Below are positions 8,435-22,472 of a stretch of DNA of 25,149 bases, in pieces. Position 1 is the first letter of the stretch. The number at the start of each line of letters is the position of its first letter. Position numbers and translations under genes: made by a program. Source of the DNA: a virus (taxonomy: Duplodnaviria; Caudoviricetes); IMG/VR virus record IMGVR_UViG_3300020044_001396, positions 1-25,149 of that record; one strand, written 5' to 3'. A model generated the notes under the pieces. That model saw only the letters and a program-made list of their open reading frames with translations. It was not told the DNA's origin and did not search any database.

Positions 8435-9407
8435 ATGAACAACTACCTGCCTACTGACTACCAAAGTTTCATCGGAACATCACGCTATGCCCGTTGGATC
8501 GAAGAAGAGAAGCGTCGAGAAAACTATGGGGAGACTGTAGAGCGTTACATCCAGAACGTAGTGGTCCCTAAAGTCAAAGACCTTGCTGTGGTTGACAAAA
8601 TCCGTCAAGCAATCCTTGGTCTCGAAGTCATGGGGTCAATGAGAGCACTCATGACTGCTGGTCCTGCCTTGGAGCGTGACAACACAGCAGGTTACAACTG
8701 TGCCTATCTTGTGGTAGATGACCCCAAGTCCTTCGACGAGGCTATGTTCATTCTGCTTTGTGGTACAGGTGTTGGGTTCTCTGTCGAGCGTCAATACATC
8801 TCTAAGCTCCCTGAAGTCCCTGAACAGATGTTCAAGAGTGATACCACAATCGTTGTTAAGGACAGCAAAGAGGGTTGGGCTAAGGCTCTGCGTCAACTGA
8901 TCAGCTTGCTCTATGCTGGTGAAATCCCTCAGTGGGATGTCTCTAAGGTTCGCCCTGCTGGTGCCAAACTCAAGACCTTTGGTGGTCGTGCATCTGGCCC
9001 TGCACCTCTTGTCGAGATGTTCAACTTCGCTATCAACACCTTTGTCAATGCCAAGGGTCGTAAGCTGTCGTCTATCGAATGTCACGACCTGATGTGTAAG
9101 ATCGGTGAGGTTGTGGTTGTTGGTGGTGTACGTCGCTCTGCTATGATCAGCTTGTCTAACCTCTCGGATGACCGTATGCGTCACGCTAAGAGTGGTCAAT
9201 GGTGGGAAAAGAATGGACAACGCGCTCTGGCTAACAACTCTGTGGCTTACACCGAGAAGCCCGACATGGAGACCTTCATGCGAGAGTGGTTGTCTCTCGT
9301 TGAAAGCAAGAGCGGAGAGCGAGGTATCTTCTCTCGTCCAGCAAGCAAAAAGCAAGCCGCAAAGAACGGACGACGTGACAACAACTATGATTATGGTACC
9401 AATCCGT
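8435..9407 (+). CDS. nrdJ: Class II (adenosylcobalamin-dependent) ribonucleotide reductase, exon 1
   Basis: SRYARW, YNCAY, GTGVGFSVE, GGRASGP, GGVRRSA and SGERG motifs; ends at GTNP plus the T of the catalytic Cys codon. Confidence 0.93.
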
Positions 9408-10183
9408 AAGCGATAAATGTGCGGATTTAAAACCCCTTCTGATTGACTTGGAAGTCTGTAGCAAGACGACAGGGCGCAAGCGTAATGGTAGCGTGAGAGA
9501 CTAAGTGAAGGGGACACTAATATGATTGTTTATTGGATCAGAGAAAAGCAACACTCAGACATCTACACTGAAGGGTATGTTGGTATAACCAAGAAGCCCT
9601 TAAAAGAGCGTGTTCGTGAGCACAAGAAGAATAAAGGCAACAGTATAGTTGCTGGAAAACTTCGGAGCTACCCAGACCTTGTGTGGTCTGTTATTCACGA
9701 GACTAACACTCTTGAAGAAGCCCTTGCACTTGAAGCACAGTATCGGCCCACGCAACTTGTAGGTTGGAACTTGCAGAAAGGTGGGCAGCTTGGTGTTGAG
9801 CCTGAGTGGTACGATGACCCAGTTAACAGCCAGAGACACAGCATGAAAACGTCTGAGGCAACTCGACGTGGGATTGCCGCCAAAGATACTAAAGAGGCCC
9901 GTTCTGAGAGGGCTAAACTTAACCACAAAAATAAACCAGAGAGCTACAAAGATGTTGTTAAGGGTGAGAAAAACCCTAAGGCAATTCTTAGCGAAGCTGA
10001 TGTGGTTAAGATAAAGTATGATTTGTTCCCTCAAGGGCTGAAGAACCCAGAGATTGCAGATATGTTTGGCGTGAAACCTTATGTTATCAGTTTTATACGG
10101 ACTGGTAAAAATTGGAAACATGTGTAGTGTATGCGATAGTCCAGCGCACAAGCGGGTATGCTAATGTAACCCCGTGGTGTGAG
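9408..10183 (+). mobile_element. Group I self-splicing intron in nrdJ (776 nt) with a homing endonuclease ORF in the P8 loop
   Basis: P1: exon AATCCGT (9401-9407) pairs with GCGGATT (9421-9427), giving the U-G wobble at the splice site. P3: CCCCTTC (9433-9439)/GAAGGGG (9507-9513). P5: GTCT/AGAC. P7: GACTA (9499-9503)/TAGTC (10137-10141). P8: ACACTA (9514-9519)/TAGTGT (10125-10130). Terminal G at 10183. Removal restores TNPCSEIIL in frame. Confidence 0.93.
9522..10127 (+). CDS. Intron-encoded GIY-YIG homing endonuclease
   Basis: IVYWI...YVGIT....ER..EH, conserved E (ALALE) and GWN; C-terminal KGEKNPKAIL plus HTH-like IADMFGV....IS.IRTGKNWKHV DNA-binding module. Confidence 0.88.
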   Translation: MIVYWIREKQHSDIYTEGYVGITKKPLKERVREHKKNKGNSIVAGKLRSYPDLVWSVIHETNTLEEALALEAQYRPTQLVGWNLQKGGQLGVEPEWYDDPVNSQRHSMKTSEATRRGIAAKDTKEARSERAKLNHKNKPESYKDVVKGEKNPKAILSEADVVKIKYDLFPQGLKNPEIADMFGVKPYVISFIRTGKNWKHV

Positions 10184-11112
10184 GCAGTGAAATCATTCTG
10201 CGTCCGTATCAGTTCTGTAACCTCACAGAGGTCGTGGTTCGAGCTACGGACACACTCAAAGACTTGGAACGTAAGGTAGAGTTGGCAACTATCCTTGGCA
10301 CTATCCAATCGACCTATACTCACTTTCCGTATCTCCGTAAGGTCTGGAAAGACAACACTGAGGAAGAGCGTCTGCTTGGCGTTTCTCTGACTGGGATTAT
10401 GGACAACAAGTTGATGTCTGGTGGCGCTGACTTGCCGCACATCTTGGAGTACTTGAAGAATGTTGCTATCGCTACTAATACAGATTGGGCTGCTCGTCTT
10501 GGCATCCCGACAAGCGCAGCTATCACTTGCGTCAAACCAAGTGGAACTGTCTCTCAGTTGGTGGATAGTGCTTCTGGCATCCATGCACGGCATTCAGACT
10601 ACTACATCCGTACCGTGAGGGGCGATAACAAGGACCCCCTGACACAGTTCATGATCGATCAGGGCATCCCGCATGAACCTGACGTGATGAAGCCCGACAG
10701 TACCACTGTCTTTAGTTTCCCACAGAAGTCTCCTGAAGGTGCTATCACTCGTAACGATATGACTGCTCTGGAACAGCTTGAGTTGTGGCTGGTGTATCAG
10801 CGTCACTGGTGTGAGCATAAGCCCTCTATCACTGTCACAGTGCGTGACCACGAGTGGATGGAGGTGGGAGCTTGGGTCTATAAGCACTTTGATGAAGTCT
10901 CTGGTGTTTCGTTCTTGCCTCACTCTGACCACACGTATCAGCAAGCACCCTACCAAGAGTGCAGTGAACGTGAATACCTTGATGCCTTGGCCTTGATGCC
11001 AGAGCGTATTGACTGGAGTAAACTTAGCGAGTATGAGACTGAGGATACCTCTAAAGGCACTAGCACCTTTGCCTGTGCTGGTGGTAGCTGCGAGATTGTA
11101 GACTTGACCTAA
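10184..11112 (+). CDS. nrdJ: Class II ribonucleotide reductase, exon 2 (spliced product 633 aa)
   Basis: Resumes GC AGT GAA (C-S-E), then IILRPYQFCNLTEV, TCVKPSGT, EHKPSIT, QAPYQE and the C-terminal redox pair CAGGSC. Confidence 0.93.
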
Positions 11113-21409: not shown

Positions 21410-21976
21410 TTATTCCTCATATCTATTAGATTTGGATAGGTTGATGTCAGAAGGTAAGACTTGTAAGTTCCACGGAACGTGCAAACCACAAACCCTTTTA
21501 CCTCTTAGAGGAACGATATGGTCTACGTGGTACTTTTGCCCTGAAACAGCTTCAAGGTCTTTGGCAAGCCAGTAGAAATCTTCCATCTCTTTAAGTTGGG
21601 AACTCGTCAACCACTCAGGTGTTGCATTGAGTTTTCTAGACCTGCGCCGAGCTTCTTTTGCCGCATACTTATCTAGGTTGTTTTTTCTGTGCTCTTCGTG
21701 CTGTTTACGAAATCTTTCTGGATCGTCCCGATACCGCTTTAATTGGTAATCCTTAGTTTTTGGATTTGTCCAATACCTTTGGTTTAGGGTGTCTTTGTTG
21801 TTTTCGTAATAAGTCTTCCAGTAGTTCGCTGACGCCTGATCACCAGCTCTAGAGGGTCGAGTTTCTTTTCTGCACTGCTTACAACGAGCATCAAAACCAG
21901 ACTTTATATCTTTTCTAGGGGAGAATGACGTCAAGGGAAGTGCAATTTTACAGCGTGTGCAAACCTTTTCCGTCAT
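21410..21976 (-). CDS. Free-standing HNH endonuclease
   Basis: CxxC..CxxC N-terminus; ATPEWL, YHVDHIVPLRG..VCGLHVPWNLQVL....N.SKSN; ATG at 21976 after AAAGGA. Confidence 0.9.
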   Translation of the reverse strand: MTEKVCTRCKIALPLTSFSPRKDIKSGFDARCKQCRKETRPSRAGDQASANYWKTYYENNKDTLNQRYWTNPKTKDYQLKRYRDDPERFRKQHEEHRKNNLDKYAAKEARRRSRKLNATPEWLTSSQLKEMEDFYWLAKDLEAVSGQKYHVDHIVPLRGKRVCGLHVPWNLQVLPSDINLSKSNRYEE

Positions 21977-21989
21977 GATTGATCCTTTA

Positions 21990-22472
21990 TCAGTTATACG
22001 TGAACCAAGCGATGGTAACAGGTGTGCAGTAGAAGGGGGAGTCAAGGAAACTCGTCCTGACCTCGGAGTAATCGATAGACACGATAGTTGGACTACCAAG
22101 AAGGAGCCTGCTACCATCTTCTAGAAGGATGTCGTCACCACTCTCTAAGAGGATCGCATCTGTAGGGTTAGTGTAAACAATGTCTGTGGTAGCATTGAAG
22201 CGGTCCAGCAACAAGTCAGCCACATCATAACCAGCACCTGAACCAAGTGCCTCTGGTGTACAAATCAAGATACTGTATAACCCATCATATCTTTGTTGTG
22301 GGTTCAAACCACGAACAGCGGGACGACGAGAAGTAGGAACCAAATCAGCTTTAACGAAAGTAGTTCCTGTGGTTGGTTCGTAAGGCACGTTCTGTCTAGC
22401 GATAGCAGGGATACCCACTGTGCCAGAGAGGTGTGTGTCTAGGCAGGCACGAATGTCATTAATGATTGTCAT
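21990..22472 (-). CDS. Tail terminator protein with an acidic repeat segment
   Basis: Position before the major tail gene; IA.QN..YEP..G....G.Y.I.I.TP...G.G...PVTI.W pattern. Confidence 0.75.
   Translation of the reverse strand: MTIINDIRACLDTHLSGTVGIPAIARQNVPYEPTTGTTFVKADLVPTSRRPAVRGLNPQQRYDGLYSILICTPEALGSGAGYDVADLLLDRFNATTDIVYTNPTDAILLESGDDILLEDGSRLLLGSPTIVSIDYSEVRTSFLDSPFYCTPVTIAWFTYN

Follow-up and report, generated by a model that had tools for sequence, protein, structure and literature searches.

A compact IB-like group I intron in the catalytic cysteine codon of a phage nrdJ gene and its predicted L5-L9 kissing brace

The window, i.e. the whole 25,149-nt stretch of phage DNA that was analysed, contains an nrdJ gene that is interrupted by a group I intron within its catalytic Cys codon. 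We consider it likely (probability roughly 0.7) that this is a compact intron of IB-like build from an apparently unclassified phage family, and that a kissing brace between L5 and L9 permits it to splice itself without the GIY-YIG protein that it carries. The boundaries, the core helices, the covariation of L5 with L9, natural copies that lack the ORF and the exchangeability of the ORFs are directly supported. The unrecognized family and its covarying kissing contact appear to be what is new here; small size alone was already known elsewhere.

The 25-kb phage record carries polA, thyX, PhoH and class II ribonucleotide reductase (RNR) genes, and the nearest matches of the nrdJ exon DNA were in Roseobacter and Lentibacter podophages. 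Exon 1 of this monomeric class II enzyme (8435..9407; all features given here are on the + strand) ends with base 1 of the catalytic Cys codon, and exon 2 (10184..11112) was assigned by restoration of the frame and by profile coverage. The exons map to positions 33-387 and 389-698 of the phrog_367 profile. Excision of the 776-nt intron (9408..10183), of which omega-G 10183 is the last base, restores the frame: T9407 and G10184-C10185 become TGC, in a single frame of 633 aa that runs across GTNP-C-SEIILRP. By alignment to PDB 1L1L, the Lactobacillus leichmannii enzyme, the split Cys should be equivalent to residue 408, which we take to be the thiyl-radical cysteine. Fifty-two of 56 relatives have boundaries that likewise restore an RNR frame, with the insertion at this NP-C codon, and introns at this site occur in monomeric and dimeric-type RNR enzymes alike.

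In the window P1 (9401..9427) pairs exon bases 9401-9407 with the IGS (9421-9427), with a U9407-G9421 wobble at the 5' splice site, and a P10 of 3 bp is possible (9418-9420 with 10184-10186). The earlier note had stated that P1 nearly abuts P3 and that P2 is missing. Indeed, P1 ends at 9427, P3 starts at 9433 and only a 5-nt A-rich linker (9428..9432) lies in between; comparable spacing was found in 56/56 introns. The 5' half of the core (9433..9513) comprises P3 (9433-9439/9507-9513), P4 with 4 Watson-Crick pairs (9447-9450/9470-9473), P5 (9454-9457/9464-9467), P6 of CGC/GCG (9475-9477/9491-9493), P6a (9480-9481/9488-9489), J6/7 with UGA (9494-9496), the 5' strand of P7 (9497-9503; 3' strand 10137-10142) and J7/3 (9504-9506). 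P5 is the 4-bp hairpin described before, with a 6-nt loop (L5, 9458..9463) of which 9459-9463 are complementary to 10159-10163, and the 3 nt of J7/3 leave no place for P7.1/P7.2 between P7 and P3', as had also been noticed. P8 (9514..9519 with 10125-10130) is followed by J8/7 (10131-10136). A single 3' hairpin (10145..10181), built from P9a (10145-10149/10177-10181) and P9b (10152-10156/10171-10175), holds the 14-nt L9 with its pairing segment 10159-10163. With the ATG at 9522 and the stop at 10127, 114 nt precede and 56 nt follow the ORF, as counted earlier. The stop codon (10125-10127) begins the 3' strand of P8. The ribozyme therefore measures about 173 nt plus loop, so that the compactness claimed for a core of about 170 nt stands and its size is corrected. 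Essential peripheral helices inside the ORF, which the earlier note had named as the finding that would overturn a small core, are absent: natural ORF-less copies, which make up 26 of 52 same-site relatives, are 167-190 nt long.

Free-energy folding of the two ribozyme halves separately was not significant compared with shuffles (z -1.25 and -0.54). Structural support was therefore taken from covariation, computed on a MAFFT alignment of the 26 ORF-less relatives. Paired cells amounted to 92.8% versus 80.4% in shuffled alignments, and two-sided changes were present in 31 of 52 pairs (P3 6/7, P5 4/4, P6 plus P6a 4/5, P8 3/3 and P7 1/6). P4 was invariant in these introns and showed two-sided changes in the wider family, where five pair types were seen in P4, four in P7 and three in P6. 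Compensatory changes at 2 of the 3 P6 pairs favour CGC/GCG, and an alternative register, GC/GU, was rejected for this reason. P9b pairs poorly in the alignment because MAFFT misaligns it; the stems are clear sequence by sequence. The U-G wobble at the 5' splice site, a group I signature, was found in 26/26 ORF-less introns. In 51 of 55 introns P10 has 3 bp or more, and it changes along with the Cys codon; the group I core of P3-P7-P8 and P4-P5-P6, with the bulged-A G-site in P7, is present. J7/3 has 3 nt in 99 of 105 parsed cores and 4 nt in four (by eye), two being truncated, and one further locus is without P3. The 3-nt J7/3 in 151/151 cores of the wider family is a product of the filter and was not counted as evidence. 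Position 2 of J3/4 (9440-9441 in the window) and position 2 of J7/3 (9505-9506) were seen to covary in these 151 (GG 92, AA 45, TG 9 and AG 5), which suggests a non-canonical purine-purine pair extending P3.

A protein search for relatives yielded 4 loci. Scanning with a core motif gave 119 viral stretches, with an estimated total of about 230, and in 79 of 105 unique cores the P7 partner was at most 70 nt away, i.e. L8 contained no ORF. A scan with a 3' motif added 97 further stretches. The 129 matches to this motif, 29 of which had no 5' core (chance or truncated), gave 57 unique complete introns; one was dropped, as its 3' end fell outside the pattern (loops complementary by eye), and 56 were analysed. 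The relatives having been gathered by sequence motifs, the sample is biased to similar cores; L5 and L9 were absent from the motifs. A later metagenome scan gave 119 matches (47 without 5' core) and 58 unique introns, 37 of them new, after 4 loci had been dropped whose 3' ends were outside the pattern (loops again complementary by eye). The intron family is common in uncultured phages. It is mainly viral, since the core motif was found in just 23 stretches among 185,579 prokaryote genomes. Blastn with two ORF-less members returned few matches each among 50,697 annotated phage records. The cultured phage CRP-118 (OR420741.1) has a 172-nt ORF-less copy in nrdJ. In GenBank, CRP-118 nrdJ and one capsid gene are each annotated as two CDS and no intron (both records were inspected). 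In the literature outside subscription journals no description was found of this family, of L5-L9 pairing in group I introns or of CRP-118 by name, and a prior description is possible.

L5 and L9 can form at least 4 consecutive Watson-Crick pairs in 54 of the 56 introns; 2 of the 56, and 3 of the 37 new introns, form just 3. Strict Watson-Crick runs served as the measure, and a best-register test that allowed G-U was discarded because it chose spurious registers. Summed over 32 distinct L5 sequences, the runs came to 162; 100,000 permutations gave 98.8 +/- 4.8 and never exceeded 121. Loop L6a, taken as the control, showed no pairing signal (own 2.94, cross 2.97). In a MAFFT alignment made without regard to the structure, 98 of 104 cells of the four central L5-L9 pairs were intact. 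The covariation score was 0.758 versus 0.282 for shuffled alignments and at most 0.177 when slid; three of five measures exceeded the shuffles in this alignment test, and pairs changed and extra pair types did not. A tree built with both loops left out requires about 29 changes in the L5 core, which implies that kinship is not the explanation for the complementarity. Of 15 L5 sequences that first appeared in the later metagenome scan, 14 can form 4-6 bp with L9, and the summed run of 82 (versus 45.5 +/- 4.4) was reached in 0 of 100,000 permutations. An ORF-internal partner for L5 or L9 was rejected, no complementary 5-mer being present in the ORF. As a duplex the kiss of the window would contribute about -4.9 kcal/mol, and it spans 4-6 bp in the family.

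The canonical struts of group I introns are L2-P8 and L9-P5 (PMC2813881). From its covariation we infer that L5-L9 is an intramolecular kissing brace in place of the GNRA L9-P5 contact, and that it would be the sole remaining peripheral strut of the RNR-site introns. It would tie the P4-P6 domain to the P3-P9 domain, with no L2-P8 contact. This pairing, which the earlier note had missed, would better explain how so small an RNA joins its domains. Splicing would proceed in two standard, guanosine-dependent steps by means of the G-site of P7, the wobble in P1 and P10. An RNA-specific exon junction was not found in RNA-labelled runs, which are contigs and in 2 of 4 cases probably DNA; joined forms also occur in DNA, and small-share RNA runs are uninformative on expression or habitat.

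It could be argued that the structure and the kiss are right and that efficient splicing needs a general RNA chaperone of host or phage, or ongoing translation, neither of them encoded by the intron. With one predicted inter-domain strut and 4 Watson-Crick pairs in P4 the RNA may profit from assistance. The aI5beta intron, which has no P2-P8, is protein-dependent, the host factors StpA and S12 assist T4 introns (PMC3984707), and 4 of 8 tested intron-carrying genes of Bastillevirinae were spliced in vivo only (PMC11878797). However, as indirect evidence to the contrary, the intron persists across very different RNR genes and in phage genomes of 41-198 kb, and the window family is GC-rich and tightly conserved, as opposed to the A+U-rich, degenerate minimal introns of fungi (PMC8971849). 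We regard such a dependence as rather unlikely and prefer self-splicing supported by the L5-L9 brace.

The Rfam model Intron_gpI (RF00028) did not reach its gathering cut-off on this intron family. It had no match on the window or on the intact CRP-118 intron, and among 32 loci it gave weak partial matches of 22.9 and 23.5 bits to family members, versus 85-113 bits for unrelated introns in the same loci and for those of T4, Twort and S-PM2; SPO1 introns were found too. A model made from the 26 ORF-less introns scored 193 bits on CRP-118, gave one weak 33-bit match in Twort and none in T4, S-PM2 and SPO1. Since Rfam misses the family, it is probable that numerous RNR, capsid and tRNA genes of phages carry annotations as interrupted or divided genes.

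To place the intron in a subgroup, a visual comparison was made with a subset of the IB4 rows of GISSD, with all IB3 rows and with a number of ID and IE2 rows. The layout of IB3/IB4, with no P7 extension, a 3-nt J7/3 and a dispensable P2, is that of the window intron. Among the GISSD rows compared (PMC6125680) are IB4 and IB3 rows in which P1 runs into P3, P2 is often absent, J7/3 has 3 nt, P7.1/7.2 are missing and P7 is similar, and the shortest IB4 row there is 203 nt including exon flanks. The missing helices are therefore ordinary for IB. In contrast to these rows, the window family has a J3/4 that is 2 nt longer, a P4 with an A-G start and 4 Watson-Crick pairs, P6 of CGC/GCG, J6/7 of UGA, a single long 3' hairpin and Watson-Crick pairing of L5 with L9, and it was found in phage protein genes. 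The IB core pattern (4-nt J3/4, 6-bp P4, J6/7 of UCA in IB4 or GUA in IB3) was not seen in it by eye. Neither were the IC3 features (P2 with L2-P8, GNRA L9 in a P5 receptor) or the large domain 2 from P1 to P3 that marks ID, present with one exception in the ID rows read. The intron thus has an IB-like build, and by eye it could be assigned to none of the subgroups whose rows were compared (IB4, IB3, ID and IE2).

An ordinary membership in IB1, IB2 or IB4, with a size near the low end and the kiss as a local embellishment, is unlikely. The shared layout and the IB4 row of 203 nt with flanks point in that direction, as do the non-RNR members of the family, which have a P9.1 loop and 3' tail in common with archaeal IB4.5. 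However, the longer J3/4, the A-G start of P4, CGC/GCG in P6 and UGA in J6/7 were in no IB4, IB3, ID or IE2 row read, and RF00028 gave no score on the intact CRP-118 intron. As a tentative extension of the preferred IB-like, apparently unclassified placement, the family may represent a previously undescribed group I subgroup that is widespread among uncultured phages and escapes Rfam. Of all natural group I ribozymes that splice themselves without protein, those of its RNR-site branch (167-175 nt) might then be the smallest, with one re-programmable L5-L9 kiss taking the place of all GNRA-receptor struts and the canonical strut used in sister branches.

The phage IA2 introns (T4 td, nrdB and nrdD; Twort; SPO1) and the S-PM2 psbA intron resemble the window intron in residing in a nucleotide-metabolism gene and in having an endonuclease in a loop. 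P1 also runs directly into P3 in S-PM2 psbA and in one Twort intron. All the same, in these introns additional sequence (P7.1/7.2) separates P7 from P3', and RF00028 detects them; neither applies to the window intron, so that the earlier statement that it is unlike IA2 holds. The IC3 intron of Azoarcus pre-tRNA-Ile has 205 nt (PMC13168695, PMC2813881). Like the window intron it is compact and without P5abc and P7.1/7.2; it differs in having P2 and two GAAA tetraloop-receptor struts (L2-P8 and L9-P5), whereas the window intron is about 30 nt shorter and has neither P2 nor a P5 receptor. Lehnert et al. are said to have described in 1996 the loop-loop pairings P13, P14 and P16 of IC1/ID introns, each of which reportedly uses a loop of domain 2. 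These contacts are likewise Watson-Crick kissing loops that act as peripheral braces, but the window intron, which has no domain 2, would join L5 to L9 instead.

'Derived' fungal mitochondrial introns of 142-144 nt, which do not splice in vitro (Prince et al. 2022, PMC8971849), are also a core with few peripheral elements. They are A+U-rich and poorly conserved, in contrast to the GC-rich, conserved and widespread window family with its covarying tertiary contact. Predicted introns of Bastillevirinae and relatives range from 173 nt upward (PMC11878797). The suggestion that the window holds a near-minimal natural ribozyme is thus upheld for its compactness and withdrawn for unusual size and missing helices, which are ordinary in IB3/IB4, introns of 142-144 nt having been published.

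Among sister introns at other sites, 15 have an 11-nt-receptor-like P5, and 15/15 of these have GAAA or GAGA in L9 (by eye); the P5 pattern was drawn up after the data had been viewed. It was found in 0/50 RNR-site introns, in which L9 loops are 13-20 nt. Another 74 introns have neither receptor-like P5 nor GNRA L9 by these patterns, and several show the kiss by eye. The elements that L5-L9 connects are those joined by the canonical L9-P5 contact, and within the family the kiss and the receptor form exclude each other. This makes it improbable that L5 and L9 are complementary for the sake of dimerization between molecules or of a switch in folding or regulation, although covariation is blind to intra- versus intermolecular pairing and P9 is longer than a canonical P9. 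An intramolecular brace is the interpretation retained. A third P5/P9 layout, with GAAA in L5 and an A-rich L9, was observed at L016, L040, L051, L061, L064, L069 and L112 and is possibly a strut of reversed polarity.

L8 of the window intron accommodates a gene for a GIY-YIG homing endonuclease of 201 aa (9522..10127; Pfam PF01541, E 6.7e-8). Residues Y4, Y19, G21, R30, H34, E71 and N83 are invariant in an alignment of eight relatives and T4 I-TevI. We presume that the Arg, Glu and Asn among them have the catalytic roles assigned to their I-TevI equivalents; with these residues intact the ORF is predicted to encode a nuclease. A comparison of the endonuclease with PDB gave no match, and no sigma-70-like promoter was found near the ORF. 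The purine-rich 3' strand of P3 (9507..9513) has a Shine-Dalgarno-like placement 8 nt before the ATG, and the first ATG is 5-8 nt past P3 in 14 of 23 introns with a long L8. This strand probably doubles as the ribosome binding site of the ORF, and folding of P3 and P8 would then conceal both this site and the stop codon.

The ribozyme itself does not seem to need the ORF. An intron (L135) that is identical to that of the window at 101/106 plus 53/53 (154/159) ribozyme positions has a tetraloop for L8 and resides in a complete genome without the nuclease. A nuclease homologue was encoded elsewhere in 0/5 complete phage genomes with ORF-less copies, both positive controls being found, and in none of three further partial records. 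Unrelated HNH genes fill L8 in three relatives, and on the tree copies with the ORF are intermingled with copies that lack it. One DNA run contained alleles of three states: intron with ORF, intron without ORF, and no intron. Such a mixture would be expected of a homing cycle, in which the nuclease would cut intron-less nrdJ alleles and later be lost or swapped. The near-identical ORF-less copy, the homologue-free genomes and the HNH replacements make a required self-encoded maturase unlikely. The earlier idea that splicing may need the intron's own ORF product finds no support in view of the 26/52 ORF-less relatives, the HNH swaps and the nuclease-free complete genomes. Intron-encoded maturases do exist (the bacterial example in the review PMC3984707 is a LAGLIDADG protein), but a GIY-YIG protein that doubles as a maturase for the minimal RNA is very improbable in view of this evidence and of the fact that without splicing nrdJ would be dead in the phages with ORF-less copies.

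Compared with the Azoarcus model, these natural group I ribozymes are shorter by about 30 nt, and CRP-118 provides a cultured ORF-less example. Since a kissing loop would naturally take the place of a tetraloop-receptor among members of a single family, the minimal peripheral support of a group I core becomes directly testable, and orthogonal L5/L9 pairs could be used in split, trans-splicing and RNA circularisation designs.

Several members differ in site or build. In Omnitrophota and related genomes (L243-L246, L249, L255, L258) the family intron lies in the D-loop of tRNA-Asn(GUU) genes, with 215-323 nt in the five that have both boundaries and L5-L9 complementary by 3-5 bp by look; the tRNA introns mapped in the available part of Williams 2020 are in the anticodon loop only. 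At L012, L013, L020, L022, L030, L036, L045, L080-L082, L250 and L260 P7 is followed after 7-9 nt by a tRNA-like 3' half, which leaves almost no P9. This branch occurs in phage contigs and gut-type MAG contigs, with a tRNA 5' half about 930 nt upstream in three loci; its members are possibly still smaller ribozymes, or decaying, several being without the terminal G. Two RNR-site members (L247, L259) have a P2 hairpin, a GNRA loop and a longer P5, which suggests a loss or a gain of P2 during the evolution of the family. At least two family introns occur within 2.6 kb at L005, L008, L052 and L060, some in capsid-like genes, and a second, canonical group I intron follows shortly downstream in the same nrdJ at L077:652-899 and L253:1333-1564. 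The window further contains a free-standing endonuclease VII gene (1682-2128) that overlaps the polA stop, and a free-standing HNH-like ORF (21410-22117; motif by eye) amid tail genes.
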